This document shows, piece after piece, positions 1 through 49,909 of a stretch of DNA of 64,000 bases (its first letter is position 1; each line of letters opens with the position of its first letter). Both the position numbers and the translations under genes were made by a program. The stretch covers positions 21,182 to 85,181 of the forward strand of contig CAYVOI010000001.1 in assembly GCA_964453605.1 (NCBI GenBank), given 5' to 3'. This DNA comes from an uncultured Gammaproteobacteria bacterium. GTDB lineage: Bacteria; Patescibacteriota; Patescibacteriia; Veblenbacterales; UBA10138. A model generated the notes under the pieces. That model searched no databases and was not told the DNA's origin. It saw only the letters and a list, made by a program, of their open reading frames with translations.

Positions 1-1
1 C

Positions 2-637
2 AGTATCGAGGAGTTTCAAAGTTCAACGAGTGAAAAATCGTTCACCGCGAAGGGGAAAATCAAAAAGAAAGACTATGAGGAAGCGGGTATAGAATTTGAA
101 GACCCTTGGCAAGCGGTCGGAAAACCGAGCAACTCTGGCATTACCCTGTGGGGGGTATCGCGCCCGAAAGACGACGGTATCTTTTTCGTAAATACCAAAA
201 CGGGTGAACCAGAATTCACGGCGGCGAGCGATATCAACGAGGCGATAAAGAAATTCATCGCCAAGCACCTGACCGAGTACGAAGGTAAACGTGGCAGGGA
301 GCCTATAGTAATCAAACCGAAAAAGTACAGCGGGGCCCTGCATCGGTATGAAGGGGCGTGCCTCTGTCACCAGCTTATTAATCTTGGTGGCATAACTTTT
401 AACTGGGGAGAACACACCAAAGGAGAGTTTCCCTATAATTGTTTTGAGTGTAGCTGTGGGGAAAAGTGGTACCGCATTTCGCCGAAATACAAACGGTGGA
501 TTAGGGTTGCCGACGAGAACGCCTGGAAAATGCTCCTAGAATACGATGGAATAGCCATCCAGCCTTTGGGCATATACGAGGGGAAGGCGTACCTAGTCCA
601 AACTTTAAGGGATCAGGGGCTCATTCCATTGAGATAA
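2..637 (+). CDS. Hypothetical protein, C-terminal part (5' end lies outside the window). Cys/His-rich segment CHQ..CFECSCGEKW suggests a zinc-binding fold.
   Basis: Open frame from nt 2 to the TAA at 635-637, translated by hand. It is absent from the ORF track only because no start codon lies inside the window. The overlapping antisense ORFs are low-complexity. Confidence 0.5.
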   Translation, partial: SIEEFQSSTSEKSFTAKGKIKKKDYEEAGIEFEDPWQAVGKPSNSGITLWGVSRPKDDGIFFVNTKTGEPEFTAASDINEAIKKFIAKHLTEYEGKRGREPIVIKPKKYSGALHRYEGACLCHQLINLGGITFNWGEHTKGEFPYNCFECSCGEKWYRISPKYKRWIRVADENAWKMLLEYDGIAIQPLGIYEGKAYLVQTLRDQGLIPLR

Positions 638-639
638 GC

Positions 640-705
640 TGAAAGAAGTTTCGAAACAAAGACCGCCGAAGTAGCTTACGCTAAGGTGGTCTTTATTTAT
701 AGCCA
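640..705. terminator. Bidirectional stem-loop between convergent genes
   Basis: Inverted repeat AAGACCGCC...GGTGGTCTT followed by a T-rich tract, sitting between a plus-strand gene end and a minus-strand gene end. Confidence 0.4.
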
Positions 706-711
706 AAACCT

Positions 712-1077
712 CTAACTAATATCCCTATAATGTTTCAGATCGATTAACTCACCGTTGGGGGTCATGACCACCGCGACAACTTCAATCCGTGCCTGCTGCG
801 GCAACTGAGGATGAGCCGTGAGGTAAGCTTGCGTGGCACCACGCAACTTTTCCTGCTTTACCTTATTCACCGCATCCTCCGGATTACCAAAGCCAATGCC
901 GTGCCGGGTTTTCACCTCCACCACCACGAGCGTGCCCTGGTCTTCGGCCACAATATCAATTTCCCCGTACCGGCCAGCGTGCCAGTTGCGGGTAATTATT
1001 TGGTACCCCTTACTCACCAAGTACTGAGCTGCCAACTCTTCACCCGCACCGCCGAGCTGTTGCCGGGCGTGTGCCAT
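712..1077 (-). CDS. yraN: YraN-family (UPF0102) endonuclease
   Basis: 121 aa. Matches the YraN family pattern GEIDIVA...LVVVEVKTR. Confidence 0.8.
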   Translation of the reverse strand: MAHARQQLGGAGEELAAQYLVSKGYQIITRNWHAGRYGEIDIVAEDQGTLVVVEVKTRHGIGFGNPEDAVNKVKQEKLRGATQAYLTAHPQLPQQARIEVVAVVMTPNGELIDLKHYRDIS

Positions 1078-1493
1078 TAACGAGTTTTAGGCAAGTACTT
1101 TAGGTACTCTTGTTGTTTTTGCCGTTCAGCACGCTCCTTAGGCGCTTGCCTTATAGTGTAGCGAACAATTGACCACAGCCAGACTACCGCCACCGCGAAC
1201 CAGAGTAAAAACCAGAACCTACTCCCGAGGAGTGGTGTGTAGGTTTGGGTGAAGAAGAACGTTACCAGACTCAAGAACCCAACCGTAGCGAGCAGCTTCC
1301 CCAAGCGCACCGCCACACGGTGCCAGCCGGTGTCTTTCACTACTCGTGCACTAGCGGCCAGCAGCATACCAACCACAACCGCACCCCCCGACACGCCGAG
1401 CACCACCCAGTAGGCCGTACCTTGGAAGGCACCGGGGTAGTAGTCGAACCAGTAGGCCGGGTCGAGCAGAGGTTGTAGGAGCCCAAGCGACAT
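1077..1493 (-). CDS. Hypothetical membrane protein
   Basis: 138 aa with three or four hydrophobic helices. Start/stop overlap (ATGA) with yraN. Confidence 0.55.
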   Translation of the reverse strand: MSLGLLQPLLDPAYWFDYYPGAFQGTAYWVVLGVSGGAVVVGMLLAASARVVKDTGWHRVAVRLGKLLATVGFLSLVTFFFTQTYTPLLGSRFWFLLWFAVAVVWLWSIVRYTIRQAPKERAERQKQQEYLKYLPKTR

Positions 1494-1501
1494 AGCAGTC
1501 T

Positions 1502-2056
1502 CTACTTTACCAGTACAAACCCGTAGTGGTAGCTGCCAGCCTCAAACTGCTTATCGGCCGTAAGCCCAGCCTTACCAGCCAAGGTGGCGACTGCCTCTGG
1601 TTTGAGGCGCGACTCTAGGGGCGGCCCCAGCGGCGTGGGCTCTACTTTCCAGTCCACTACCAACAGCTTACCGCCAGATTTCAACAGGCGGTGTGCTTCT
1701 CTCAGAATGTTTTCGTTCTGGCGCGATTGGAACATGATATTGATAAGCAGTCCAAAGTCCAACGTCTCGGGTGGAACCTTAGCCGCCCCCACCCGCTCCA
1801 AGTCCGACCACACGGTTTCGATGTTGGTTAAGTTCTCAAGCTTAGCTTTGCTCGTCACACCTTCGAGTGCGGGCTTCAAAATATCTACCGCGTAAACCCT
1901 ACCCTTACTCCCCACCAGCCGCGCCGCGGGCAAAGTAAAGTAGCCAGCGCCGCCACAGCCAAAATCAGCGAGCTGCGCGCCCATGGTAACACCAAGTGTG
2001 TCTTTAAGAAGCACTTGTGGGTCGAGGAGCCTAACGCCCTGGGCTTCACCTTTCAT
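1502..2056 (-). CDS. Class I SAM-dependent methyltransferase
   Basis: Motif I DFGCGGAGY and overall Rossmann-fold methyltransferase organisation. Confidence 0.8.
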   Translation of the reverse strand: MKGEAQGVRLLDPQVLLKDTLGVTMGAQLADFGCGGAGYFTLPAARLVGSKGRVYAVDILKPALEGVTSKAKLENLTNIETVWSDLERVGAAKVPPETLDFGLLINIMFQSRQNENILREAHRLLKSGGKLLVVDWKVEPTPLGPPLESRLKPEAVATLAGKAGLTADKQFEAGSYHYGFVLVK

Positions 2057-2077
2057 ACCCGGTAGTAGAACTTTGAC

Positions 2078-2350
2078 TTAAGAGTTAGCGGTATACAGAT
2101 AATCTTTGATACGACGTTTGAGGAGCCGCCGGCCTTGGTTCGTCTTGAAATAGTGTTCGCGACGTTTAGCATCACTCTCAGACAAACAGGCTTCGTAGTA
2201 TATGAGCTCCCAGGGACGGTAGGGCCTGGTAGAAGTCACTAAACCTTGGTTATGTTCCCTAAGCCGTTTCTTGAGATCGGTAGTCTGCCCATGGTAGAGA
2301 ACTCCTTTGGCCGGGCCTCGAAGTACATATACGTAATGGAACGTAACCTG
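2078..2350 (-). CDS. GIY-YIG nuclease-family small protein (URI domain). No canonical start codon in frame, so it may be a pseudogene or use an unusual initiation.
   Basis: Hand translation of the minus strand gives QVTFHYVYVLRGPAKGVLYHGQTTDLKKRLREHNQGLVTSTRPYRPWELIYYEACLSESDAKRREHYFKTNQGRRLLKRRIKDYLYTANS*. The frame is bounded upstream by a TGA at 2351-2353, and there is no ATG, GTG or TTG in frame before the conserved YVYVLR block. Confidence 0.5.
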   Translation of the reverse strand, partial: QVTFHYVYVLRGPAKGVLYHGQTTDLKKRLREHNQGLVTSTRPYRPWELIYYEACLSESDAKRREHYFKTNQGRRLLKRRIKDYLYTANS

Positions 2351-2378
2351 TCAAAGTTTCACTACCGGGCATGCACAC

Positions 2379-3062
2379 CTAGTATACCAGGGCGTCAGCC
2401 ACTGGTCGATACGTACGCCGGTGAATAGGCGAAACGCCACGGTGCTTGAGGGCTTCGGCGTGACGGGCGGTACCGTAACCTTTGTGCTCCGCGAAAGCGT
2501 AACCACGGTACTTGCCTGCGTATGCCCTCATAAGTTGGTCGCGGTGTACCTTAGCAACTATAGATGCTAGGGCAATAGAAACTGATTTAGTGTCACCATC
2601 AACCAGCACCTCAGCCGGCACCCCAGCTACCACATTACCCAACCTAGCCACGTAATCCGCTAACACGTACCGAGGCCGCACCGTCAGGTTGGAAACTGCC
2701 AAAGCCACCGCCTCCCGATTGGCCGCGGCTATGCCGACCTTATCAATGTGCTTGCTACTCAACACCCCAACTGCCCACGGCACTACGGTTTTCAGTCCAG
2801 CAAAAACCTCCTCGCGAGCACGAGGTGTAAGCAGTTTGGAATCATTAACACACTTAAACCATGACAAGGGTCGAATCTGCTCCACAAGTTTGGCAGTGAG
2901 TACCACGGCACCGGCCACAATAGGCCCAGCCCAGGCACCACGCCCTACCTCATCCACACCTGCCACCATAGTATAAACACTGGCAAAGAGCCCTTGTTCG
3001 CGAGCCAGAGTTGGGCGCCGTGGAAAACTAACTCTTGACTTTTTCGCACGTTTAGCTACCAT
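2379..3062 (-). CDS. rnhB: Ribonuclease HII
   Basis: VAGVDEVGRG...DSKLL...SIALASIVAKVHRD...HKGYGT motifs. Confidence 0.9.
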   Translation of the reverse strand: MVAKRAKKSRVSFPRRPTLAREQGLFASVYTMVAGVDEVGRGAWAGPIVAGAVVLTAKLVEQIRPLSWFKCVNDSKLLTPRAREEVFAGLKTVVPWAVGVLSSKHIDKVGIAAANREAVALAVSNLTVRPRYVLADYVARLGNVVAGVPAEVLVDGDTKSVSIALASIVAKVHRDQLMRAYAGKYRGYAFAEHKGYGTARHAEALKHRGVSPIHRRTYRPVADALVY

Positions 3063-3097
3063 GTCACCGTTAGGTTACGTTCTTTAATAAACAATAG

Positions 3098-3178
3098 CAC
3101 GTGTTTCGGTTTCTGACGTCGGGCCCAGCAAGGTTACTCGCTAGTTCTAAGCTAGAAACCGAACACGCCGGCCTCGTG
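3098..3178. promoter_or_regulatory. Long imperfect stem-loop in the rnhB/3297 divergent intergenic region
   Basis: CACGTGTTTCGGTTTCT...(39 nt)...AGAAACCGAACACG forms a 14-bp stem with one bulge. The loop contains a smaller hairpin, TTCTAAGCTAGAA. Confidence 0.35.
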
Positions 3179-3296
3179 TAACCTACACAGGGATGGGCTA
3201 CAGCGCACCATATCTTCAGGTGCACCGCAGCATTTTGCTATGTTATATGTCTAGTCAACTAAAACACAAACCACTACAACCAATAAGGAGCAAACC

Positions 3297-3728
3297 ATGA
3301 GCACATCACCCGACCGCGTATGGCGGGGCATTAAGCTGGCCCTCTGCCTTATGGGGCTCCCCGTGTTCTACTTCGTTCCCGCGCTCGTGTTTCACTGGCC
3401 CCTCCCCACCTTTGCTGTCAACGTTCTCACTGGCCACCAAGCCGAGTACTGGTTCTTCATGGTGTACAGCACCGACAACATCCGGGGCTCTGCTGTCTTC
3501 ATCAGCTTGTGCCTTACCGCGAGCAGCTGCCTCATCATCTTCACGTACCCCAAGCTCGCCCATGAGCTCAAGAACAACTTCGCCAGCGTTTTCGCGCCAA
3601 AGGAAAAACCCGGGGCGCCCAGCTCCGCACCGCCGGTGGTGACCGCCGAACACCTTAACCCCCAACCCTGGTACCGCCGCACCGCCCGCACCACCGCTTC
3701 ACACCGGGTTCCTGAAACAAGCCCTTAG
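3297..3728 (+). CDS. Hypothetical membrane protein with a Pro/Ala-rich C-terminus
   Basis: AAGGAG Shine-Dalgarno 8 nt upstream of the ATG; three predicted TM helices. Confidence 0.6.
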   Translation: MSTSPDRVWRGIKLALCLMGLPVFYFVPALVFHWPLPTFAVNVLTGHQAEYWFFMVYSTDNIRGSAVFISLCLTASSCLIIFTYPKLAHELKNNFASVFAPKEKPGAPSSAPPVVTAEHLNPQPWYRRTARTTASHRVPETSP

Positions 3729-3782
3729 AGGGCGGATGGTTTCCAACAAACACCCATGCTCGCAACTAGCGTGGGTGTTTTT

Positions 3783-4277
3783 CTATGTCTCTACAACTTT
3801 CACTTCGTACGTTTCGCACGCCGAGGCGTCATCATTAAAGTAAAACTCGGCCTCGAGTTTTTTACCTTGGAGCACCTGTGGCAACCACAGCGGATCGTCC
3901 ACCCACATGTCAGCATAAGGAACATCACCAAGCGCAAACCACTGCGGTTTCATTTCTTCGCTTTCAACTGGCTCACCCTGCCAACGACGTAAGAGATACA
4001 CGTGGACTTCTTGGTTAAAGCTTGCGTCATGTTTAAAGTAGAACTGAAGCACGGCAACTTTTTCTAAGTCTGGTGCGGCTGCCGTAACACCACTTTCCTC
4101 TTGCAGCTCACGAAGCATCGCCTGTTCCAATGTCTCACCCGGCTGTACCTTGCCGCCGTACCCATTCCACTTACCTACCCCAAATCCACGCTTCTTCATA
4201 GCTAAGAGAAGTTCACCGGGGCGCACCAGGAAGCAGAGTGTCACTTGCCTGAGTGCCGCGTTAGCCATGAACCCCAA
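3783..4277 (-). CDS. NUDIX hydrolase (MutT-like)
   Basis: Nudix box GKWNGYGGKVQPGETLEQAMLRELQEESGV. Confidence 0.8.
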   Translation of the reverse strand: MGFMANAALRQVTLCFLVRPGELLLAMKKRGFGVGKWNGYGGKVQPGETLEQAMLRELQEESGVTAAAPDLEKVAVLQFYFKHDASFNQEVHVYLLRRWQGEPVESEEMKPQWFALGDVPYADMWVDDPLWLPQVLQGKKLEAEFYFNDDASACETYEVKVVET

Positions 4278-5513
4278 CTAGAACCTACCTCTGGCCTCGA
4301 TTGCCTGACCAATCCGCTCAATAGCTAGAACAAAAGCTGCAGTACGCAAGGGCACGTGGAGCTGCTCAGCCCGGTGCCACACCTGCTTAAATGAGGTAAC
4401 CATGATTGGTTTAAGTTTGGCCATAACCTCGCCCTCGTCCCAGTAGTACTGGGCTTGGTTCTGTACCAGTTCAAAGTACGACACGGTAACACCGCCAGCA
4501 TTTGCCAACACGTCGGGCACCACGACCACGCCACGTTTGTGGAGCTTGTCATCAGCCTCGGGCGTGGTTGGCCCGTTAGCCATTTCAAATACAATCCTAG
4601 CCTTCACCCGGCCAACGTTGGCTTTGGTAATCTGATTTTCGAGTGCGGCTGGCACTAAGACGGTCACCGGTAACTCTAAAAGTTTAGCGTTCGTAAGTTC
4701 TTTAGCGCCTGGGAAACCCTTGAGGCTGCCATGCTCTTTTTTGTAGTGTTCCACTGCCGAAACGTCTAAGCCCTTGGGGTTATAAATAGCACTCTGCGAG
4801 TCTGACATTGCTACCACCGTCATACCAGCTTGCGAGGCAAGCTGCGCCATGATGCCGCCGACATTCCCCATGCCCTGAACTGCCATAGTCACCTTCTTGG
4901 GTTGAAGTTTGAGCTTAGCCAAAAGCTCTTGGAGCACGTAGAGCCCGCCTTGGGCGGTGGCTGGTGTGCGGCCCTGGCTGCCGCCAGCTGAAAGCGGCTT
5001 GCCAGTGACCACACCTGGAACTTTTTTCCCAACGATGCGGCTGTATTCATCAGCAATCCAGGCCATGATCTCTGGTGTAGTGTTTACGTCTGGCGCGGGC
5101 ACATCTTGTTCAGGACCAATGAATGGCGCGAGCTTGCGCGCTAGTGCGCGTGACAACCGTTCAAGCTCTCCCTTAGAAAGTTTTTTAGGATCCACCGTAA
5201 TACCGCCCTTGCCGCCGCCCAAAGGTATGCCTACAACAGCACACTTAATAGCCATCCAAAACGCCAGCGCCTTCACCTCATCAAGGTTAGTCTTGGGGTG
5301 AAACCTAAGGCCGCCCTTGTAGGGCCCACGAGCTGAGGAGTACTGCACGCGGTAACCCTCAAACACTTTCACTGACCCGTTGTCCATGGTAACGGGCAAC
5401 GAAAACTGCAGCGTGCGCTCCGGCTGTTTTAAACTTTCTAGTACATAGCTCGGAAGTTTCAGATGAACGCTGGCTTTTTTAAGCTGAGCAAGGGCATTAC
5501 TGAATACAGACAT
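4278..5513 (-). CDS. gdhA: NAD(P)-specific glutamate dehydrogenase (Glu/Leu/Phe/Val dehydrogenase family)
   Basis: KGGLRFHP, GGGKGG and the glycine-rich dinucleotide motif GMGNVG. Confidence 0.9.
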   Translation of the reverse strand: MSVFSNALAQLKKASVHLKLPSYVLESLKQPERTLQFSLPVTMDNGSVKVFEGYRVQYSSARGPYKGGLRFHPKTNLDEVKALAFWMAIKCAVVGIPLGGGKGGITVDPKKLSKGELERLSRALARKLAPFIGPEQDVPAPDVNTTPEIMAWIADEYSRIVGKKVPGVVTGKPLSAGGSQGRTPATAQGGLYVLQELLAKLKLQPKKVTMAVQGMGNVGGIMAQLASQAGMTVVAMSDSQSAIYNPKGLDVSAVEHYKKEHGSLKGFPGAKELTNAKLLELPVTVLVPAALENQITKANVGRVKARIVFEMANGPTTPEADDKLHKRGVVVVPDVLANAGGVTVSYFELVQNQAQYYWDEGEVMAKLKPIMVTSFKQVWHRAEQLHVPLRTAAFVLAIERIGQAIEARGRF

Positions 5514-5527
5514 AGGTGTAGGTAAGA

Positions 5528-6553
5528 TTAAATTGGTTGCTTAACTGGCTCTATACGTGTGGCAATGGTAGTTGGTGCCTTAGCCAAACCCCAGTCGATA
5601 GACACGCCACGGAAACCTTTTACTTTTTGCAGGTACTCATAGGTCTTAAGCGCCGCCGTGGCGCCCCAACCAGCGGAAATAACAATCTGCTTGTAGGAGA
5701 TGGTGGTAATGTCACCGGCGGCAAAAATGCCAGGCTGGCTGGTTTCAGCATCAGGCGAAATCTTAATCTGCTTTCGGGCGTCGAGCTCAATAAGGCCCTC
5801 AATAAGCTTCGAGTTCACAATAAACCCCACCTCCACAAACACCCCCTCCACCGCGAGTTCGCGGGTTTTGCTCTGATCAGCGGCATCCATTACCACCAGG
5901 CCCCTAACCCTGGTATCACCCTTAATTTCTTTCACCTCGCTATTCAAAACTAGCTCAATACGCTCCTGCTTAAGCTGCTCCACCAGTACCGCCTCAGCCC
6001 GAAACTCTTCGCGGCGGTGTACCAGGTACACCTTGGGGCAGAGCTTAGCGAGGAGCAGCGCCGCATCAACCGCTGAGTTACCACCGCCGACCACGGCGAC
6101 AGATTTATTCTTAAATAGTGGTGCGTCGCAAGTAGCACAGTAGCTCACCCCTTTGGCGCCAAACTCTTTTTCACCAGGCACGCCTAAGTGTCGGTGCGTT
6201 AAGCCGTAGGCCAGAATAATGCTGTGGCCAGTGTAGGTCTCGGTATTCGTGGACACCGTAAACAAGGGGGTCTGTTTTTCGTCGTCCCCTTTCGTAATTC
6301 CGGTGACCTCAGCGTACACAATGTTGGCACCAAACTTTTCCGCCTGGTCTTTGAACTTATTCATGAGGTCGGGGCCCGTGACAAAATCCACCCCAGGGTA
6401 GTTCTCAATTTCATTGGTGGTCGCAGCTTGCCCGCCGATGTCTTGCGTGATCATGAGCACCCTCATAGCGCGGCGCGAAGCATAGAGCGCCGCGGTGAGT
6501 CCCGCCGCCCCCGCGCCGACAATTATAGTGTCGTAAATATTTTGCTCTGACAT
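5528..6553 (-). CDS. trxB: Thioredoxin-disulfide reductase
   Basis: FAD motif IVGAGAAG, redox-active CATC, NAD(P)H motif VVGGGNSA. Confidence 0.9.
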   Translation of the reverse strand: MSEQNIYDTIIVGAGAAGLTAALYASRRAMRVLMITQDIGGQAATTNEIENYPGVDFVTGPDLMNKFKDQAEKFGANIVYAEVTGITKGDDEKQTPLFTVSTNTETYTGHSIILAYGLTHRHLGVPGEKEFGAKGVSYCATCDAPLFKNKSVAVVGGGNSAVDAALLLAKLCPKVYLVHRREEFRAEAVLVEQLKQERIELVLNSEVKEIKGDTRVRGLVVMDAADQSKTRELAVEGVFVEVGFIVNSKLIEGLIELDARKQIKISPDAETSQPGIFAAGDITTISYKQIVISAGWGATAALKTYEYLQKVKGFRGVSIDWGLAKAPTTIATRIEPVKQPI

Positions 6554-6565
6554 CGCTGTTCCAGG

Positions 6566-6889
6566 CTACGCGTGCTTCTCAATAGCGAGCTTGAGCTTGT
6601 CTTTAGCTTGCACGCCCACAAACTGCTCCACCACCTGGCCGGCCTTAAAAATGAGGAGTGAGGGAATGCTCAACACGTTGTACTGGTTGGTGGTGGTGGG
6701 GTTCTCATCCACATTAAGCTTGGCGATTTTGCCTTTAGAAGCATCCACTTCTTTCGCCAGATCTTCCAGCATAGGCCCCTGCACGCGGCACGGCCCGCAC
6801 CACGGCGCCCAAAAATCAACGAGCACTGGCACATTACTCTTTAACACCTCGGACTCAAAGGTAGCGTCGGTAACAATAACTTCGTTCAT
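6566..6889 (-). CDS. trxA: Thioredoxin
   Basis: WAPWCGPCR active site. Confidence 0.9.
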   Translation of the reverse strand: MNEVIVTDATFESEVLKSNVPVLVDFWAPWCGPCRVQGPMLEDLAKEVDASKGKIAKLNVDENPTTTNQYNVLSIPSLLIFKAGQVVEQFVGVQAKDKLKLAIEKHA

Positions 6890-6901
6890 ACTAAATAAAA
6901 A

Positions 6902-7168
6902 TTAAGTAACTTTAAATAAACCAGAAACAATTTTTTCTAGATCCTTTACCTTGGCCTCGTTACTTCCGCTACCACCAAAGCAACCTTCCGCTTCAGCCTC
7001 CAGCAAAACCGTGGCCAGCTTCTGTAAGGAGGCACGAGCCGCCACAATCTGCTGGAGCACTTCAGAGCAGTCGCGCTTAGCCTCTATCATACGGCCAATG
7101 CCCGCAACCTGCCCCTCGGTTCGTTTTACCTGGTCGCTAATAGCTTGTGGATCACAACGGTCTTTCAT
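6902..7168 (-). CDS. CsoR/RcnR/FrmR-family metal- or formaldehyde-sensing transcriptional repressor
   Basis: 88 aa all-helical protein with a TEGQVxGIxRMIE...C...L...EGC pattern. Cys residues sit at the positions of the family ligand triad. Confidence 0.6.
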   Translation of the reverse strand: MKDRCDPQAISDQVKRTEGQVAGIGRMIEAKRDCSEVLQQIVAARASLQKLATVLLEAEAEGCFGGSGSNEAKVKDLEKIVSGLFKVT

Positions 7169-7199
7169 ATATTTAGTACTAGATACTGGTAGGTAGTAT

Positions 7200-7230
7200 A
7201 GCTGATAGATTAAATTAAGTCAATATCAGG
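7200..7230 (-). promoter_or_regulatory. Sigma70-like promoter for the CsoR-like gene
   Basis: Minus strand reads TTGACT, 17 nt, TATACT, about 35 nt upstream of the ATG at 7168. Confidence 0.45.
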
Positions 7231-7321
7231 CTAAATTAGTATTTTGCGACACTTAGTAAATTTTATAATCTTGTTCCACATGGAACAAAAACATACTACA
7301 TGATTTAATTGTATAGCTCCC

Positions 7322-7597
7322 CTATTGCTCTAAAAACCTATTTCTCAGGACGTCTATTTCATCTGGGGTTAAACGGAAATCATGACAAACTCTTACAAAA
7401 AGGTCATGAAACCATTTATGATTTCTAGGTATTTTTTGTGACACCTCAAAATTAGTCACCAAGGCTATCTCCTCGCTAGAAAATGAGTAGTGCGGGTTGG
7501 TTATCATGTCAGCCAACTCTTCTTTATACTTCTGTAGAAGGCTATTAACAAAAACTTCATCACTTGTTCGCTCGTGATGGTTTTCTCTGTTTTCCAT
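7322..7597 (-). CDS. Hypothetical small protein (92 aa), AT-rich
   Basis: The ORF track extends this to 7651, but that extension overlaps tRNA-Ala. The internal ATG at 7595-7597 (MENRENHH...) is the plausible start. GC is well below the genome background. Confidence 0.45.
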   Translation of the reverse strand: MENRENHHERTSDEVFVNSLLQKYKEELADMITNPHYSFSSEEIALVTNFEVSQKIPRNHKWFHDLFVRVCHDFRLTPDEIDVLRNRFLEQ

Positions 7598-7611
7598 ATG
7601 TAGATAAAAAT

Positions 7612-7687
7612 TGGTGGACCCAAGGAGACTCGAACTCCTGGCCTCTTCCATGCCATGGAAGCGCTCTACCAGCTGAGCTATGGGCCC
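7612..7687 (-). tRNA. tRNA-Ala(GGC), CCA encoded
   Basis: Manual cloverleaf fold: GGGCCCATAGCTCAGCTGGTAGAGCGCTTCCATGGCATGGAAGAGGCCAGGAGTTCGAGTCTCCTTGGGTCCACCA. Carries the G3:U70 Ala identity pair; anticodon GGC. Confidence 0.9.
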
Positions 7688-7756
7688 TGAAGTATGGGCC
7701 TAACCCAACTTCAGGGCAAGCCCAAAACCACTAAAAATCTATTAATAAGCAGAAGG

Positions 7757-7786
7757 TATTATATCGGCCTGAATAGCCTACGTCAA
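7757..7786 (-). promoter_or_regulatory. Near-consensus sigma70 promoter driving tRNA-Ala(GGC)
   Basis: Minus strand reads TTGACG, 17 nt, TATAAT. The predicted TSS is about 60 nt upstream of the tRNA 5' end. Confidence 0.6.
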
Positions 7787-7797
7787 CGCCCTATATT

Positions 7798-8585
7798 TTA
7801 CCTTTGTTCCACATGGAACATTTCTCCCAAAGAGTCCTTAATTAGATAAAAAGGGAAAGCTATGGTTGCAACCAAAATTCTCAAAAACCGCCTTGGCTCA
7901 ACTAATAATCTCCAAACCCATTCCAAACCCATTTTCCTAAATACCACGGGAGCCCTTTTTCTCTTCCCAGCAAAGTAATCAAATGTACCACCAACCCCTA
8001 TACCTACTTTTACCGGAAGTTGCGGCAAGTAGTAGTTAAGCCAAAGCTCTTGTTTGGGGTGGCCAAAACCAACTAAAAGTATGTCGGGTTTTTTTAATAT
8101 GATGTCATTAATTAGTCTCTGATTCTCCTGGCTTGTAAGCGGAAACTGGTCTTTTTCAGAAAAAATAGGACCAGTATCAAATCCAGAAATGTTAATTTTT
8201 GCGTATTTTAAGGTAAAATATTGTGTCGCTTTTTGTAAATCAGTATTACCAATAAAGTACAGGGAATACTCCTTAGCCACTGATTCTTGGACTAAAAGAC
8301 TAACCAAATCCACGCCAGTAACCCTCCCTTTTACGATTGGGGTTTTTGATAGGTAAGAAGCTAGGATCACACCTGTACCGTCCGGAGCCACTAAACTCGC
8401 CCGCTCTAAAATGGCCCGGTACTGAGGGTGCTGGCGGGCGTAAACTAATATCTCCGGGTTTGCGGTAACTACCAATTGCTTTTGGGGTAGACGAAGTGCG
8501 GCCTGAATAAGGTCGGCGGCCCCCCGCAAACCAGGATCGGCTATGGTTACACCAAAAGCTTTGTACATAAGGCGAGGTCTCCAGT
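7798..8585 (-). CDS. WecB/TagA/CpsF-family glycosyltransferase (UDP-N-acetyl-D-mannosaminuronic acid / ManNAc transferase family)
   Basis: Family-typical blocks FIGNTD...LVGFGHPKQELW...GVGGTFDYFAG. The start is ambiguous: ATG at 8583-8585 (MLNW...) or 8559-8561 (MYKAF...). The longer track ORF to 8790 looks like an N-terminal over-extension. Confidence 0.75.
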
Positions 8586-8674
8586 TTAGCATTTTGGATC
8601 CCTTTTGTGCTTCAATACAAGCAATTTTGCGAGTTTTCTTGAATCTGAGCCTCAAAAGAAGATATAATTTCAAT

Positions 8675-9178
8675 ATGGCTACAAAAGATGAACTCGAACA
8701 AAAACCCCTATTCCGTTTTGCAAAAGTTCTTTTTTCCCTGTCAGCCTTTATTGTTGCCACCCTAACAGTGTTTGTCTGGTACGGCGTCAAATCAAAGGAC
8801 TATGATACCAGTCGGTCATATTTCGTCTGCAATTCGTTCACTACACAACATGGGCTGACTGACGACGAAAAAGAGACTCTCAAAGTCTCTCAACCGCCTG
8901 CGTTTAATGCTGGCTCAGCAGCCCAAACACGTATAAACCAGGTGTGCTACCAAGAATATAGCGGTGGAAAGGATGCTGCTACACAGGCCAACATTGATTC
9001 TTTTCGTGCATTTCAGAGTGGCCCAGATGGACGAGTTTATACAATTCAAGGGACAAAAACATCAGATGATTGGCACTGGGACGGGCTGCTGATTGCCCTT
9101 GCTGTTGAGTACCTTGTCTTTTGGTTCCTAAAGCAAGCCGGCTTATACATTGCTGGCGGTAGAGACGCGTTGAAATAA
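8675..9178 (+). CDS. Hypothetical protein with N- and C-terminal TM helices, AT-rich
   Basis: ATG at 8675 (MATKDELEQ...). The upstream part of the track ORF overlaps the tagA-like gene on the opposite strand. Composition is low-GC. Confidence 0.5.
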   Translation: MATKDELEQKPLFRFAKVLFSLSAFIVATLTVFVWYGVKSKDYDTSRSYFVCNSFTTQHGLTDDEKETLKVSQPPAFNAGSAAQTRINQVCYQEYSGGKDAATQANIDSFRAFQSGPDGRVYTIQGTKTSDDWHWDGLLIALAVEYLVFWFLKQAGLYIAGGRDALK

Positions 9179-9245
9179 GCACATTTTATCGCTTCTGCGA
9201 GTAGAGTGATGATTCCCCATTGAGCAGTGGGGTGCTTTGGCCCTG

Positions 9246-9319
9246 TGGTGGACCCAGGGAGAATCGAACTCCCGCCTGCGCAATGCGAATGCGCTGTAAT
9301 ACCACTTTACTATGGGCCC
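9246..9319 (-). tRNA. tRNA-Ala(CGC), CCA encoded
   Basis: GGGCCCATAGTAAAGTGGTATTACAGCGCATTCGCATTGCGCAGGCGGGAGTTCGATTCTCCCTGGGTCCACCA. G3:U70 pair; anticodon CGC. Confidence 0.85.
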
Positions 9320-9497
9320 ACCACAGAGCCAACCTTTAGGCTACCAACTCCGACGAGCCTGCTGTCGGAGCCCCGACTTAGGCGTCGGGGCTGAGCTACT
9401 GGCCCCTGAAGTATGGGCCTCGCCCAACTCCAGGGCGAGCCTTTACTAAACTAGCATGCTCTGGCTGTGCCATAAACTGGCCCGAAGGCCTAAGGCC

Positions 9498-9572
9498 TGG
9501 TGCCCCCGGCAGGAATCGAACCTACATCTATCCCTTAGGACGGGACTGTTCTATCCATTGAACTACAGGGGC
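9498..9572 (-). tRNA. tRNA-Arg(CCT), CCA encoded
   Basis: GCCCCTGTAGTTCAATGGATAGAACAGTCCCGTCCTAAGGGATAGATGTAGGTTCGATTCCTGCCGGGGGCACCA. Acceptor GCCCCTG pairs with CGGGGGC; anticodon loop is GTCCTAA. Confidence 0.85.
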
Positions 9573-9600
9573 CCCTTGTACCACCCGAGTAGCCTAGGGG

Positions 9601-9789
9601 CTACTGGGGTTTGGAGTCAAGCAGGCGGCTGGCAAACTGGCTGAACCTGCCACCATGACTCTCAAGGTAGCCAAGAGCGCCGAGCACTCCCGCGATTATG
9701 ATACCCAAAGCCAGGAGTGTTAGCATATCCTGCTTCAGGTAGGTGTTGCTGTCGTTGGACATAGGCGTTGACGTTAGCACATCTACCAT
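9601..9789 (-). CDS. Possible small membrane protein (62 aa)
   Basis: Single TM helix. The ORF abuts the tRNA-Arg 5' end. There is no other support. Confidence 0.3.
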   Translation of the reverse strand: MVDVLTSTPMSNDSNTYLKQDMLTLLALGIIIAGVLGALGYLESHGGRFSQFASRLLDSKPQ

Positions 9790-9850
9790 ACTACAATAGC
9801 AATGATTTTTCTACCCACCTTCTAACTTCACCACTAACCTACACAACCCT

Positions 9851-10261
9851 ATGTTCAAAGGCGATAGCCACAGCGAAACTGATACCCTTATTGGCCCTTC
9901 GGTAAAAGTGGAAGGTGATTTTTCAAGCCAGGGGAACATACACATTGAGGGCGCGCTAAAGGGCACCATGGAAACCGCCGCGAACCTGACGGTGGGTGAA
10001 CACGCCCACCTGGTGGCTGACGTTAAAGCCCAGAATGCCTACGTGGCAGGCTATGTTAAGGGGAACTTGAACGTGGGTGAACGGCTCGAGCTTGCGCCCA
10101 CGAGCCACATCGAGGGTGATGTATCGGCCAAAGTGCTGGTGGTAACTGAGGGTGCTCGGCTCGACGGTAAGTGTCAGATGACAGCTGCGGCAGTGGCAAC
10201 ACCAGCAGGTACTACTCGCACCACGAGTAAAAAAACGGCCACGGTAGCACAAGTGGGCTAG
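9851..10261 (+). CDS. Bactofilin (polymer-forming cytoskeletal protein, DUF583)
   Basis: Repetitive beta-helical segments IHIEGALKG...AYVAGYVKGNLNVGERLEL...IEGDV, as in CcmA/BacA. Confidence 0.8.
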   Translation: MFKGDSHSETDTLIGPSVKVEGDFSSQGNIHIEGALKGTMETAANLTVGEHAHLVADVKAQNAYVAGYVKGNLNVGERLELAPTSHIEGDVSAKVLVVTEGARLDGKCQMTAAAVATPAGTTRTTSKKTATVAQVG

Positions 10262-10282
10262 TCGCCTGTCTCCCGGGCGCCT

Positions 10283-11056
10283 ATGCCCTACTTTTACCTT
10301 TACGATACCTACCTTGGGGACCGGTCATACGCCAGTCTCCTCATTAAGTTGGAAACAACGCTGACTGACCTGGGGCTCCAAGGGAAGATTGGCCGGTTAA
10401 CCTTGCTCAAGAGTGTCAGGGATTTGGTCACGGCAGCGATTCGCGACGGGGCTGATACAGTAGTAGCAGTAGGGAACGACACTACACTCTCACGGGTAGC
10501 TGAGGTGGTGGCTAAACACCCCAAAGTTAGCGTTGGGTTGATACCACTCGGAGCAGAGAGCCAAACCTGCGCCGAGCTCTTGGGTATACCCGTGGGGCTT
10601 TTGAGCTGCCACGTACTCTCAAGCCGGCTGGTAGAAACGGTAACCTTGGGGCAGGTTAATAACCAATACTTTCTCCAAGCCGTGGGTTGCAGCGGGCAGC
10701 CAGTCTTAGGCTGTGAGTATGGTGGCCGGGTCTACCGGGTAACGCTCGCTACGCCGCACCAGATTAAGGTTTGCAATCTTGACCGCGTACCAGAGCACCA
10801 CGGCCCAGGCAGCACAGGCCAGCTCGAGCATGCCCTAGCCACCGTGCTCGTACCCGCCAGTAAAAAGAACTGGTTTGGCTTTAGTGCTGCCAACAGTGCG
10901 GCTACCGTTATACCAACTGAGGTGGTGACTATAAGCTCACCCGATGATGAGCTGGCACTCACTGTAGATGGCTACCGTACCATAAAAACACCAGCCACGG
11001 TGCGGGTAGCTAAAGAGCGCCTCAAGCTCATTGTAGGCAAGAAACGCCTGTTCTAG
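10283..11056 (+). CDS. Diacylglycerol-kinase catalytic-domain-like lipid kinase (YegS/BmrU family), degenerate glycine motif
   Basis: VVAVGNDTTLSRV (in place of GGDGT) and GLIPLGAESQ, laid out as in the DAGK_cat domain. Confidence 0.55.
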   Translation: MPYFYLYDTYLGDRSYASLLIKLETTLTDLGLQGKIGRLTLLKSVRDLVTAAIRDGADTVVAVGNDTTLSRVAEVVAKHPKVSVGLIPLGAESQTCAELLGIPVGLLSCHVLSSRLVETVTLGQVNNQYFLQAVGCSGQPVLGCEYGGRVYRVTLATPHQIKVCNLDRVPEHHGPGSTGQLEHALATVLVPASKKNWFGFSAANSAATVIPTEVVTISSPDDELALTVDGYRTIKTPATVRVAKERLKLIVGKKRLF

Positions 11057-11075
11057 CTCAACCTAAGCAGCTGTC

Positions 11076-11351
11076 TTAGGATGATTGAGAAACAAGCCCT
11101 GGCGCTACGGGGGTCTCGGGTTTTGGTTTGAGATCCTCAACCACCATTGCGCGCGAGCTTACGCTTACCACCTGCGCGGGAGAAATGAGGAGCACCTTCT
11201 GCCAGAGCTTAAGGAATGAGAAGGGCGGCGCGACGTGGTAGAAGCAGACCTCGCGGGCGGTGGCGTCTACCTCAACATCAACCACGCGGCCTAAGAACAG
11301 CCCGCTCTTGGTGACCACGGGTAGGTTACGACAGGGCAGGCTTGGTCCCAT
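11076..11351 (-). CDS. PRC-barrel / YlmC-YmxH-like small protein
   Basis: 91 aa with a LFLGRVVDVEVD motif typical of PRC-barrel proteins. It overlaps the yidC start by 26 nt. Confidence 0.4.
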   Translation of the reverse strand: MGPSLPCRNLPVVTKSGLFLGRVVDVEVDATAREVCFYHVAPPFSFLKLWQKVLLISPAQVVSVSSRAMVVEDLKPKPETPVAPGLVSQSS

Positions 11352-12051
11352 GGTGCCTGAAGGTTAGGTACTGCTGCACAATGGTGAACACGATGTTTAC
11401 CAACCAGTACACAATGAGACCGCTCGGTAGCCGAAAACCAATGACCGCGGTTATGGCCGGCATAACGTAGAGCATTTGCTTGTTCATCATGGCTGCCTGG
11501 CTCTCGTCCTTAGAGCCGGGCGTGGCCACCGCAGGCTTGGTGGTCACCAGCATCTTGGACTGCCAGAACTGCGCCAGGCCAGCCGCCACAGCTAGGGGCC
11601 AGCTGGGTTTGAGTAAATCCCAAAACCCAAAGGCGACGTGGGACAACACCCCGGGGTTGTGCACGAAGGGGTAGAGGAGGGTAAGGCTGTTGGACGAAGC
11701 TAGCCCGCTGCGGAATACCTGGTACAGGGCGATGAGGAAGGGCAGCTGCACCAGGAGCGGCAAACACGAGGAGAAGGGGCTCACCTTTTCGGCCTGGTAG
11801 AGCTGCATGAGCTCGCGAGCCAGACGGTCTTTCTGGTCCTTAAACTTACCCTTCAGCGCCTCAACTTTTGGTTGCAGCTCTTGCAGCGCACGCTGGGACA
11901 CTACCGACTTGCGTGATAGTGGGTAGAGCACGAACTTGATGATGAGCGTGAGTATGACAATAGCCACACCCATGTCACCCACGGCATTGTAGACTGCCAC
12001 CAGCAGGTTAAACAGCGGCTGGTAGAAAATGGTAGTAAGTACGGCGCCCAC
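11326..12051 (-). CDS. yidC: Membrane protein insertase YidC (short Oxa1-type)
   Basis: Five-TM core with the conserved PLSRKS...MQLYQAEKVSP segment. Confidence 0.85.
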   Translation of the reverse strand: MGAVLTTIFYQPLFNLLVAVYNAVGDMGVAIVILTLIIKFVLYPLSRKSVVSQRALQELQPKVEALKGKFKDQKDRLARELMQLYQAEKVSPFSSCLPLLVQLPFLIALYQVFRSGLASSNSLTLLYPFVHNPGVLSHVAFGFWDLLKPSWPLAVAAGLAQFWQSKMLVTTKPAVATPGSKDESQAAMMNKQMLYVMPAITAVIGFRLPSGLIVYWLVNIVFTIVQQYLTFRHHGTKPALS

Positions 12052-12809: not shown

Positions 12810-12999
12810 AAAGCTAAGCAATAAAAATGCTTACCTACTATACCAAGCTCGGCCATAGTTGGTCAACGTAAGGGTATGGCCTAGCGCTATCCACATAGTA
12901 TCAACAGGTTATAAACACAGCTGGCCAGGTCGGCTATTTTAGTTAGCCCAGATTACCGCTATGATACGTAGGCTAGCCTAAATAGCTAAAACCAGTGCC
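12810..12999. promoter_or_regulatory. Putative oriC / dnaA promoter region with DnaA-box-like sites
   Basis: CTATCCACA at 12886-12894 and TTATAAACA at 12909-12917. A further TTATCCACC lies between dnaA and dnaN at 14438-14446. Confidence 0.45.
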
Positions 13000-14349
13000 A
13001 TGACCAACGAAGAGCTGTGGAGCTCAACCTTGGGCGAGCTTGAGCTCCTAATAAGCAAAGCGAATTTTACGACCTGGTTCAAGAACACCAGCATTGTGTC
13101 GGTGAACGAGGGGCAGGTGGTGGTGGCAGTACCAAACGCCTTTACCAAGGCGTGGTTGGAAAAAAAGTACCACAGCTTCATCGTCAAGGCCCTACAGAAT
13201 ATAGCTGGCAGCGGCATCAAACACATTGACTACCGGGTGGAGTTGGGCCAGGCGGGCACACAAAAACAGGAGCTCGCTGCCCCGCCGGCCCCAGCCACAG
13301 CTGTGCGCGAGGTGGGGGCCAGCTTTGGGCTCAACCCGCGCTACACCCTTGACGCCTTTATTGTGGGCAAGAACAATGAGCTGGCCCGGGCAGCGGCCCT
13401 GGCGGTGGCCCAGAACCCCGGCGGAACCTACAATCCACTCTTCATCTACGGCGGGGTGGGCTTAGGTAAGACCCACCTCATGCAAGCTATTGGGCATGAC
13501 ATTGTGGGGCGCACCCCGGGCAAGCACGTGCTCTACGTGCCGTGTGAAAAGTTTACCACCGAGTTCATCCAGGCCATTGGTAGTGGAAAAATAGAGCGGT
13601 TCAAGTCCACCTATCGATCGGTTGATGTACTCCTGGTTGACGATATCCAGTTCCTGGCCGGCAAAGAAGGGACGCAGGAAGAGTTCTTCCACACCTTTAA
13701 CACCTTACACCAAGCCAACAAGCAAATTGTTTTAACTTCAGACAGGCCCCCCAAAGCTATTCAAACTCTGGAGAATAGGCTTATTTCTCGATTTGAGTGG
13801 GGCATGATAGCTGATATCGCAAGCCCAGATCTTGAAACCAGAACGGCGATTTTAGAAACCAAATGCCGCGAGCGTGGCTACCACCTGGAGCCTGATATCA
13901 TCAACTACCTCGCCACCAACATCCAGCACAACGTCCGCGAGCTCGAGGGGGCCCTCAATCGTATTGTCGCCTACCACCAGCTCAACAACCGTGCCCCCTC
14001 ACTGGAATCGGTTAAAGAGCTCTTACACGGGCTGCAGAGTGGTGGCGGGCACAATAAGAGCCTGACCAGTAAGAAGATACTAGCTACCATTGCCCAGTAC
14101 TACGACGTTGGTGCTGACGACCTGCTGGGGGTTAGCCGCAAGAAGCACCTGGTTGAGCCGCGGCAGGTGGCTATGTACCTGATGCGCGAAGAGCTTAAGG
14201 CCTCGTTCCCTACCATTGGCCAAGAAATGGGTGGCCGGGACCACACCACCGCTATGCACTCGTGCCTCAAGGTGGCCAAAGAGCTTGAGACAAATGAGAA
14301 GGTTCGACAAGATATTCACAACTTACGACAGCAGTTGAGCGCACTCTAA
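13000..14349 (+). CDS. dnaA: Chromosomal replication initiator DnaA
   Basis: Walker A GGVGLGKTHL, the AAA+ core, and the C-terminal DNA-binding helix-turn-helix. Confidence 0.95.
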   Translation: MTNEELWSSTLGELELLISKANFTTWFKNTSIVSVNEGQVVVAVPNAFTKAWLEKKYHSFIVKALQNIAGSGIKHIDYRVELGQAGTQKQELAAPPAPATAVREVGASFGLNPRYTLDAFIVGKNNELARAAALAVAQNPGGTYNPLFIYGGVGLGKTHLMQAIGHDIVGRTPGKHVLYVPCEKFTTEFIQAIGSGKIERFKSTYRSVDVLLVDDIQFLAGKEGTQEEFFHTFNTLHQANKQIVLTSDRPPKAIQTLENRLISRFEWGMIADIASPDLETRTAILETKCRERGYHLEPDIINYLATNIQHNVRELEGALNRIVAYHQLNNRAPSLESVKELLHGLQSGGGHNKSLTSKKILATIAQYYDVGADDLLGVSRKKHLVEPRQVAMYLMREELKASFPTIGQEMGGRDHTTAMHSCLKVAKELETNEKVRQDIHNLRQQLSAL

Positions 14350-29724: not shown

Positions 29725-29742
29725 CCCTCTTAGTTTATTTGT

Positions 29743-40971: not shown

Positions 40972-41225
40972 GATGCTGTCATTTTAGATCTTATTATTTA
41001 CGGAAAGACTCACCTAAGCAGGTGGGGCTTGTCCGATAAAAAGTTTGCCTGGCGGAGAGGGAGGGATTCGGCTTTACCTCTCGTCCGCCCGTCGGCGGAC
41101 TCGGGCTAGCCACCGCCTCGTGGTGCCACCTGGTGGTGGCACATCACTCCGGCGTTCTCACCCCACCGCACCACAAGCAGTTGTGGTGCTCCTCTCCGAA
41201 TGCTGTCCACGTGGTGGACCCCATT

Positions 41226-43851: not shown

Positions 43852-43947
43852 ACGAACGTTCGTTAGGAGTGACTATGGTGCCGAGGGCCACCCCGAAGTG
43901 GAGCTAAGCTCACTTCGGGGCAGGGAATCGGACACTACTCTACAGTG

Positions 43948-44019
43948 TGCCTGGGGTCAGAATCGAACTGACGACGCCAGCCTCTTCAGGGCTGCGCTCT
44001 ACCACTGAGCTACCCAGGC
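43948..44019 (-). tRNA. tRNA-Phe(GAA), no encoded CCA
   Basis: GCCTGGGTAGCTCAGTGGTAGAGCGCAGCCCTGAAGAGGCTGGCGTCGTCAGTTCGATTCTGACCCCAGGCA. Confidence 0.85.
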
Positions 44020-44668: not shown

Positions 44669-44917
44669 CGGACCGCGCTAGCCAGCTGCGCGCTATACCC
44701 GGGTGGTGTGCCCCTCGACTACGCTCGGGGCATTCGCCTCGTCCATGGTTTACCATGAGCGAGCGGAGCGAGTCGAATGGTGGGTCGGGTGGGACTCTGT
44801 CCTGGGCAGCGCCGAATGTTGCGCTTGCTCACATTCGGCGGATGCTCCCCCGCCCTTCCCGAAGGACGAGGTCGCTCCTGCCCTTCTCGTCCCCCTACCT
44901 ATCACCTTGGTGGGTCG

Positions 44918-44993
44918 GGTGGGACTCGAACCCACGACCAATTGCTTAAGAGGCAACTGCTCTACCAGCTGAGCTACCGACCCATGAAGTATG
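44918..44993 (-). tRNA. tRNA-Lys(CTT), CCA encoded
   Basis: GGGTCGGTAGCTCAGCTGGTAGAGCAGTTGCCTCTTAAGCAATTGGTCGTGGGTTCGAGTCCCACCCGACCCACCA. Confidence 0.85.
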
Positions 44994-45075
44994 AACTCCG
45001 CTCAACTTCAGGGCAAGCCCTGAAGTTTGTGGCTGTGCCATGAACTCAAGCGAGCGTGTAGTTCATGGTGCCCCC

Positions 45076-49882: not shown

Positions 49883-49909
49883 ACGGGTGTGAACTGAGGC
49901 ACCACTAGG

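Follow-up and report, generated by a model that had tools for sequence, protein, structure and literature searches.

Three copies of a palindromic motif beside tRNA genes

We analyzed a 64,000-nt segment of a bacterial chromosome (contig CAYVOI010000001.1, positions 21,182 to 85,181; hereafter the window), which carries three copies of a hairpin-forming motif beside tRNA sequences. The window contains dnaA (13000-14349) and dnaN and comes from a Patescibacteria bacterium of the candidate phyla radiation (CPR). Its proteins found exact matches in the Logan assemblies of SRR12313479/80, and the named metagenome-assembled genomes (MAGs) closest by protein were 'Kerfeldbacteria' and 'Patescibacteria group'. 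Eleven tRNA genes are present, every one on the minus strand. A phage or tRNA island was excluded, since housekeeping genes lie around dnaA and dnaN and matches to phage records were tRNAs only. The survey of copies in the source genome covered these 64 kb of 876 kb (7%).

Copy 1 of the motif is a 39-mer at 7685-7723. Copy 2 (9400-9441) is 88% identical to copy 1 over the 42 nt compared, and copy 3 (44978-45019) is 74% identical. The threefold recurrence reported by the first-pass annotation, which was made from the sequence alone, was therefore reproduced. The 13-nt core CCCTGRAGTTGRG occurred 3 times versus 0.33 expected, and none of 100 shuffles got to 3. All three copies were present with 0 mismatches in the Logan assemblies of the same sample, which are independent and built from short reads. 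On the tRNA strand, copy 1 reads GGGCTTGCCCTGAAGTTGGGTTAGGCCCATACTTCA followed by GGGCCCATAGC, copy 2 reads AGGCTCGCCCTGGAGTTGGGCGAGGCCCATACTTCAG followed by GGGCCAGTAGC, and copy 3 reads GGGCTTGCCCTGAAGTTGAGCGGAGTTCATACTTCAT followed by GGGTCGGTAGC.

Two copies abut intact, resident tRNA genes. The copy 1 module (GGGCTTGCCCTGAAGTTGGGTTAGGCCCATACTTCA, 7688..7723, minus strand) terminates exactly at +1 of tRNA-Ala(GGC) (7612..7687, minus strand; 74/76 identity to the ortholog of a relative). Copy 3 with its extra upstream arm (44984..45026, minus strand) terminates exactly at +1 of tRNA-Lys(CTT) (44908..44983, minus strand; 76/76 identity to the ortholog in the related sequence L025). The chance of two intact-tRNA abutments within 1 nt is about 1e-7 by our own arithmetic (11 tRNAs, 128,000 strand positions). 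The adjacency of the copies to tRNAs is non-random.

The first-pass annotation had placed all three copies immediately upstream of tRNAs, which is right for copies 1 and 3 but not for copy 2. The copy 2 module (AGGCTCGCCCTGGAGTTGGGCGAGGCCCATACTTCA, 9407..9442, minus strand; hairpin at 9404-9435) adjoins the 5' end of a dead tRNA piece. Using the tRNA-Ala(CGC) of the relative L010 as probe, we located a relic of the ancestral tRNA-Ala(CGC) at 9341..9405 (minus strand). Nucleotides 1-15 (GGGCCAGTAGCTCAG) lie at 9405..9391 and nucleotides 14-22 at 9349..9341, and two inserted hairpins (9350-9390) separate both pieces. The working tRNA-Ala(CGC) (9246..9319, minus strand) begins 72 nt beyond the 15-nt piece. 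It is a replacement with 58/78 identity to the ancestral type, and the same type is found in L032.

In L010, tRNA-Arg(CCT) is followed by a 16-nt spacer, tRNA-Ala(CGC) (5' end GGGCCAGTAGCTCAGTTGGTAGAGC) and directly by wecG. In the window, about 680 nt including a 167-aa open reading frame (ORF) lie downstream of the replacement tRNA-Ala(CGC), and then wecG. This ORF (8675-9178, plus strand) has no Pfam match, and its product is probably membrane-anchored. It lies within an insertion of about 800 nt that splits the ancestral tRNA-Ala(CGC) from wecG, and it is absent in L010, L030 and L031. Compared with L010, about 260 nt extra with a small ORF also lie between tRNA-Ala(GGC) and a CsoR-like gene (7322-7611), and no duplicated tRNA 3' end was found in this stretch.

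A promoter-like site, TTGACG-17-TATAAT, is predicted at 7758..7786 (minus strand; 11/12 consensus match), and both hexamers are invariant in L010, L030 and L031. Given this predicted promoter, copy 1 would sit in the 5' leader of tRNA-Ala(GGC). Copy 3 has the corresponding leader position at tRNA-Lys. The earlier placement of copy 1 between promoter and mature 5' end is correct as to position, but the promoter it called 'mapped' is a consensus match.

Predicted structure of the motif

Copies 1 and 2 are predicted to fold into a 14-bp hairpin of 32 nt with one bulged U and a triloop. The folding energies are -21.0 kcal/mol (z = -2.9) for copy 1 and -21.9 kcal/mol (z = -3.2) for copy 2, in agreement with the hairpin proposed earlier on the tRNA strand. 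The hairpin proper of copy 1 (7685-7716, minus strand) takes in G1-G3 of tRNA-Ala(GGC), and the tRNA-proximal hairpin of copy 3 (44981-45013, minus strand) takes in G1-G3 of tRNA-Lys. In copies 1-3, the stem ends in the GGG with which the next tRNA sequence begins. An additional arm is present in copy 3: ACTTCAGGG (45026..45018) is followed by a CTTG loop, CCCTGAAGT (45013..45005), a second loop and ACTTCAT. As RNA, ACUUCAGGG-CUUG-CCCUGAAGU pairs perfectly over 9 bp around a CUUG tetraloop, and in the predicted folds this hairpin competes with the tRNA-proximal one.

Between copies 1 and 2, one A-U pair became G·U, one U·G became C-G, one change lies in the loop and one outside the stem. The 'two compensatory changes' claimed for this pair of copies were thus not found, as the main hairpin contains no pair-to-pair compensation. 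An alternative pairing of GGCTYGCCC with GGGYRAGGCC accounts for the earlier claim, but it is the predicted fold of no copy. Compensation appears with copy 3, where an inner-stem G-C pair of copy 1 is replaced by A-U. GGCCCATA is the strand that pairs with UGGG(U/C) of the inner stem, and it is swapped in copy 3 by compensatory change. In copies 1 and 2, the 3' half resembles the 5' end of tRNA-Ala at 12/14 positions, as noted earlier, but copy 3 and the L029 relative show no such resemblance.

A search with Rfam 15 returned only tRNA at the gathering threshold, and nothing overlapped the motif even to E 10. No terminator was predicted at the motif, whose flanks are tRNA on one strand and CAAGCCCAAAACC on the other.

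Absence of the motif at orthologous sites

The copy 1 site was compared with L010, L030 and L031, and the copy 2 site with the same sequences plus L032, which spans the copy 2 locus only. L010 is syntenic at the copy 2 locus, and its WecG is 77% identical. For copy 3, the Arg(TCG)-Lys-Pro-Phe-Gly cluster of relatives was retrieved via PilT homologues (93% identity to the window for L025/L026, 87% for L027/L028, 81% for L029, 79% for L034 and 75% for L035).

At the copy 1 site, the promoter hexamers and the tRNA were kept in all aligned sequences, and the window alone has a clean 35-36-nt insertion beside +1. At the copy 2 site, the Arg-Ala spacers of L010, L030 and L031 are 16-17 nt long without the motif, and the 79-nt spacer of L032 is unrelated to it. 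The Arg-Lys spacers of L025/L026, L027/L028, L029, L034 and L035 all lack the motif at the copy 3 site. The tRNA-Lys of L025 is 100% identical to that of the window, yet no motif precedes it. Since the motif was absent at the orthologous sites in all fetched relatives, it is a lineage-specific gain. Judged from these alignments, the three window copies are recently gained, lineage-specific insertions.

The view of the motif as a conserved leader signal is not supported, as it is missing from every fetched orthologous position. A conserved processing or regulatory mimic of the tRNA start, one of the two origins suggested before, fails on the same ground, and the tRNA-like GGCCCATA is a pairing strand that was replaced in copy 3.

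We also scanned 185,579 species genomes, the JGI metagenomes and IMG/VR with CCCTGRAGTTG-N6-12-CATACTTCA and a looser version, so that a pattern fitting all three copies was covered. These scans gave 7, 12 and 0 chance-like hits, none beside a tRNA. The source genome is evidently outside these collections. The hits came from unrelated organisms. Two of them were ordinary hairpins, and one in L008, a Patescibacteria MAG, lay inside a membrane-protein gene.

A wider family of hairpins in tRNA contexts

A covariance model, R1, was made from the three copies and two look-alikes and applied, with filters off, to the window and the relatives. Every member found beyond the three copies lies in a tRNA context. 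Two members sit inside dead tRNA pieces: CCCCGAAGTGAGCTTAGCTCCACTTCGGGG (43891..43920, minus strand), inserted into the T arm of a relic that represents the 3' part of the ancestral tRNA-Phe, and CCCUAAAGU..ACUUUGGGG (L029:209-242), inserted into a relic tRNA-Arg(TCT) at its T loop. The former has the arms CCCCGAAGU..ACUUCGGGG and a folding energy of -25.7 kcal/mol (z = -5.0).

Three further members are inverted and form 3'-trailer hairpins. One, CCATGAACT..AGTTCATGG (45038..45068, plus strand; E = 3e-4 to 7e-4), is the trailer of tRNA-Arg(TCG) and matches the model on the strand opposite to the tRNA. The other two, also opposite to the tRNA strand (L029:7979-8018 and 8118-8157; E about 5e-3), come after the CCA of tRNA-Arg(TCG) and tRNA-Lys. 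In all three cases, the first three bases of the trailer hairpin (CCAUGAACU..AGUUCAUGG) on the tRNA strand are the CCA of the tRNA. The two L029 copies are almost identical though they stand at two different tRNAs, which indicates a recent duplication onto the second tRNA. The 7 nt preceding the stem match across the types (GGGCTTG in leaders versus TGGCTTG in trailers). Because this prefix lies outside the model and still agrees, the leader and trailer types are taken as homologous. Weaker R1 hits at 44810-44840, 44079-44117 and 9371-9390 are hairpins that also lie in tRNA loci.

Over eight hairpins, the 9-bp stem comprises 70 Watson-Crick pairs, 2 G·U pairs and 0 mismatches, with double-sided changes at positions 3, 4, 5 and 8. 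The family consensus is (G/T)GG-CTTG-CC(C/A)TGAA(G/C)T, a loop of 12-22 nt and A(C/G)TTCA(G/T)GG. The compensatory changes indicate that the hairpin shape is maintained. Structural covariation is thus present, but it emerges against copy 3 and the wider family only, and its shuffle controls are weak.

Another TGAACT..AGTTCA hairpin (49777-49804), which R1 did not detect, lies 6 nt past tRNA-Arg(TCT) and is followed by AAAAATTTT. Its 5' arm is able to pair with the leader instead.

The family was found only at tRNA gene ends or in dead tRNA pieces, in either orientation, and its modules were gained independently at different tRNAs in different lineages. The tie of the motif to tRNAs is specific at least within the window, as the first-pass annotation had held. 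A chance or generic low-copy repeat without a real tRNA tie would fit the small number of copies and the 7% coverage of the genome. However, all three copies and every R1 member lie at or in tRNA sequences of the window and relatives, and the core reached three matches in no shuffle. We regard this explanation as the least probable of all.

A palindromic protein-binding site on DNA (an operator) controlling tRNA transcription is also very improbable. The 9-bp inverted half-sites are about two helical turns apart, and copy 1 lies just downstream of the promoter-like site. However, the segment between the half-sites is self-complementary and covarying, properties that one expects in a hairpin rather than in an operator spacer. 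No promoter match adjoins copies 2 and 3, which lie in inter-tRNA spacers, and some copies lie within dead tRNA fragments.

Two possible explanations: passenger module or pre-tRNA element

Our favoured explanation, to which we give about an even chance, treats the motif as a small, duplicative palindromic module similar to repetitive extragenic palindromic (REP) elements or miniature transposable elements with inverted repeats (MITEs). The module would settle at the ends of tRNA genes and be transcribed along with them. The broader statement, that palindromic modules of about 36 nt have been copied to tRNA gene ends and dead tRNA fragments within one CPR clade, stands in our judgement at an even balance. 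The terminal GGG of the module coincides with G1-G3 of a GGG-starting tRNA, and therefore the gene stays intact. For inverted copies at tRNA 3' ends, TGG/CCA takes the role of GGG. The modules would multiply by a duplicative process at the DNA level, and the candidates are transposition-like events, template switching mediated by microhomology, and ectopic recombination among tRNA loci. At live genes, the surviving placements would be those that regenerate the gene end. Leader copies would be co-transcribed with the tRNA and removed by the RNase P cut at +1, as tolerated passengers rather than required signals.

Two observations bear on the candidate processes. Copies 2 and 3 both have ATGGCACAGCCA upstream and a preceding tRNA-Arg (D12). 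A second module, a spacer of about 65 nt (AGCACATAGCACAT..AGCTATAGGCCATTTRCCAAC) unrelated to the hairpin motif, occurs at L032:179-257 and L027:11363-11429, directly 5' of tRNA-Ala(CGC) in L032 and of tRNA-Lys in L027. These shared neighbours make recombination between tRNA loci a serious candidate. Ectopic gene conversion anchored on the D-arm sequence TAGCTCAGYTGGTAGAGC, which is present in all three neighbours, was considered as well. Simple conversion is impossible because the acceptor bases 4-7 between this anchor and the module were not homogenised.

Several points weigh against a passenger module. The shuffle controls for covariation were weak, as 22 to 55 of 500 shuffles attained the observed values with few and related sequences. 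The survey covered 64 kb of the 876-kb genome, and copies away from tRNAs may exist elsewhere. Near the copies, no transposase or RAYT-type gene (RAYT, REP-associated tyrosine transposase) was seen. The window has a single recombinase, a Xer-like gene (49910-50830), which is syntenic in all relatives and not adjacent to the copies. Target-site duplication is inconsistent: GGG (or CCA) stands on both sides at live tRNA ends only, and the copies in relic T loops or arms (L029:209-242 and window 43891-43920) lack a flanking GGG. In leader-type copies, all four G·U pairs fall on the tRNA-sense strand and none on the antisense strand, which hints at selection at the RNA level that a purely selfish DNA element would not need. 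The exact use of the terminal tRNA triplet by the stem at both ends could also reflect function rather than targeting.

These last points lead to the main rival, a possible but rather doubtful alternative, in which the hairpin is a functional pre-tRNA element that pairs with the first three tRNA nucleotides, or with CCA at 3' ends. Such an element would time or guide folding, RNase P cleavage or the trimming of 3' ends, or would keep tRNAs apart in polycistronic precursors, roles that we hold to be somewhat unlikely. Where three arms are present (arm, CUUG tetraloop, complementary arm, loop, arm), the upstream arm would act as a decoy and release the tRNA end during transcription, again a tentative idea. 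The stem end coincides with the mature end and its terminal triplet, GGG in copies 1-3 and CCA in three trailer hairpins. In the predicted minimum-energy fold of pre-tRNA-Ala(GGC), the hairpin captures G1-G3 and the acceptor stem is disturbed, and in pre-tRNA-Lys the ACUUCAGGG-CUUG-CCCUGAAGU hairpin is predicted to form instead with an intact cloverleaf. The transcribed strand holds all four G·U pairs, and the stem was kept through compensatory change. However, the same leaders in all relatives lack the hairpin though the tRNAs are 97-100% identical, so that the hairpin is dispensable. A dead fragment follows one copy, and dead T arms enclose two members, positions that allow no processing role. 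Neither the loop nor a sequence signal is conserved.

Comparison with known repeats and tRNA-associated elements

The passenger module can be compared with several known systems. REP elements, including bacterial interspersed mosaic elements (BIMEs), and REPINs (REP doublets forming hairpins) of Proteobacteria resemble it as imperfect 20-40-nt palindromes with a bulge. They are multi-copy, extragenic, co-transcribed with their neighbours and lineage-variable, and their stems are kept by compensatory change. A GTAG or CGTC tetranucleotide is described as conserved at one end of REP elements in one study (PMC3733652). The motif has the ends GGGCTTG... and ...ACTTCAGGG, and GTAG/CGTC flanks the palindrome on neither side. 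Unlike the REPIN/RAYT system, it shows no paired arrangement, has a low copy number and was seen with no RAYT gene. No transposase domain was present in the window ORFs scanned (64 kb). REPs lie after ORFs, whereas the motif lies strictly at tRNA gene ends or in relics.

Bacterial MITEs (Correia/NEMIS, RUP, Rickettsia palindromic elements) are also short non-autonomous repeats that form RNA hairpins and can lie inside transcripts, even in stable-RNA genes. However, they are 100-400 bp long with terminal inverted repeats and fixed target duplications, whereas the motif is 36 nt long, all hairpin and without consistent duplication. Its length, delimited by the alignments with relatives, also falls short of a wider MITE range of about 50-500 bp.

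Attachment (att) site scars of tyrosine integrases, and the integrase-less remnants of the cis-mobilizable element (CIME) type, are tRNA-associated like the motif, and their insert sequence regenerates the gene. We therefore weighed whether the motif is an att-site scar of an integrative element using a tRNA gene, with its tRNA-like 3' half as the duplicated target. The GGCCCATACTTCAG of copies 1 and 2 agrees with the tRNA-Ala 5' end at 12/14 positions. Integration-type scars stand in the same loci, as displaced 3' ends of tRNA-Lys (44797..44778) and tRNA-Ser (41070..41050), and tRNA-Ala(CGC) carries an ORF-containing insertion of about 800 nt. However, the sequence after copy 2 is GGGCCAGTAG and that after copy 3 is GGGTCGGTAG, and the supposed duplicate thus mismatches its neighbour. 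The tRNA-like stretch is swapped in copy 3 and in L029 with pairing retained. Only GGG is common to copies 2 and 3 and the neighbouring tRNA, and the 12/14 likeness of copy 1 brackets no DNA. There is no DNA between the supposed repeats, and no integrase or cargo stands next to any copy. Known tRNA integrases target the 3' part of the tRNA and not +1; att scars run from the T loop to the 3' end with about 15-50 nt duplicated, whereas the motif sits at +1. An att scar is thus improbable. The remnant of tRNA-targeted integration suggested by the first-pass annotation survives in part: insertion at tRNA genes and integration-type scars in the same loci are real, but the motif itself carries no duplicated tRNA segment, integrase or cargo.

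The eukaryotic retrotransposons Ty3 and Dictyostelium TRE5-A/DGLT-A insert a few bases upstream of tRNA genes, a 'safe haven' for mobile DNA. They are kilobase-sized and guided by RNA polymerase III factors, and their likeness to the motif would be by analogy only. Self-splicing tRNA introns occur in the same phylum, whose tRNA genes are unusually prone to inserted RNA elements. These introns are 200-400 nt long and sit at anticodon-loop position 35/36, whereas the motif matches no intron model. A recent survey of the Patescibacteria tRNA introns contains no mention of hairpins, relics or duplications. Remnants of group I introns were rejected, as no Rfam match was found in the window or six relatives. 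An integron attC site was dropped: copy 1 has GTTAGGC, which equals GTTRRRY, but copy 2 has GCGAGGC. For an origin from a degenerate tRNA (collapsed T arm and acceptor), the similarity was too short to decide.

Nested replacement of tRNA genes

The modules stand in a landscape of repeated tRNA replacement. Comparing the window tRNAs with their orthologs, seven resident genes are 97-100% identical and four have been replaced (Ala-CGC, 58/78; Phe, 65/75; Pro, 66/78; His, 66/74). Relics of the ancestral gene lie on both sides of the replaced Ala-CGC, Phe and Pro genes. The layout is nested: an old 5' piece, a complete foreign tRNA of the same anticodon and an old 3' piece. In the window, the nested loci are 9246-9405 (Ala-CGC), 44508-44700 and 43876-44137 (Pro and Phe). 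Nested replacement also occurs in L027 (Arg-TCT, Arg-TCG, Gly and Ser; L027:2110-2381, 11149-11362 and 12828-13012), L029 (Arg-TCT and Ser; L029:47-258 and 11377-11713) and L035 (Phe; L035:6440-6630). L025 and L010, which represent the closest relative, have no nested tRNA relics, and the distribution across lineages does not parallel PilT relatedness. The occurrence at several tRNAs in the window, L027 and L029 fits recurrent cognate-specific replacement rather than random decay. Several inner foreign tRNAs in L027, L029 and L035 are enclosed by an 11-12-bp helix between leader and trailer.

In the window, 12-bp leader/trailer helices (44020-44031 with 43935-43946, and 49885-49896 with 49797-49808) continue directly from the acceptor stems of tRNA-Phe and tRNA-Arg(TCT), which lack CCA. 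Bacterial substrates of RNase P and RNase Z do not usually have such helices.

The 3' ends of two tRNAs carry integration-type scars, at 44778-44907 (tRNA-Lys) and 41050-41224 (tRNA-Ser). tRNA-Lys is followed by a 111-nt insert and tRNA-Ser by a 155-nt insert, each then by a displaced copy of the last 20-21 nt of the tRNA (44797..44778 and 41070..41050) that runs from the T loop to CCA. The tRNA-Lys insert is also present in L027 with compensatory hairpin changes, and related inserts follow tRNA-Lys and tRNA-Pro in L027, L029 and L035. These inserts look like miniature integrase-type (CIME-like) elements or structured RNA.

We put forward, as a tentative and rather unlikely proposal, that the hairpin modules belong to an undescribed mobile DNA system of CPR bacteria that targets tRNA genes. 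Cassettes with a complete foreign tRNA would enter the D loop or anticodon region of a resident tRNA with the same anticodon. The foreign tRNA would arrive within its 11-12-bp helix, and the old gene would be left as 5' and 3' relics. The palindromic modules would afterwards colonise gene ends and relics.

Other features of the window were noted. The sign of the GC skew flips near 10 kb beside dnaA (1-12000 versus 12000-64000), which fits a replication origin. The tRNA cluster at 41-50 kb is on the minus strand, and its transcription would therefore run head-on to replication, which might favour rearrangement there. At 28456-30993, a pair of neighbouring paralogues, each of about 420 aa, shares stretches of 92-98% identical DNA spaced by 1272 nt (repeat families D1, D2, D7 and D16).

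Significance

Small palindromic repeats are common in bacteria, but we know of no palindromic repeat family that lands exactly on tRNA gene ends, and our literature search found no description of the nested tRNA replacements and 3' inserts. The motif is a lineage-specific palindromic insertion akin to the small palindromic repeats, and neither a conserved leader signal nor a tRNA mimic. If the pattern holds genome-wide, it would be a bacterial counterpart of the eukaryotic mobile DNA parked at tRNA genes, and the leader copies would provide natural substrates for studying how a structured leader abutting +1 affects RNase P. The tRNA-replacement context may be a bigger finding than the motif. 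In the loci examined, these reduced genomes have a single copy of each tRNA despite repeated nested replacement by foreign versions, and the nested replacements bear on the horizontal exchange of essential single-copy RNA genes.

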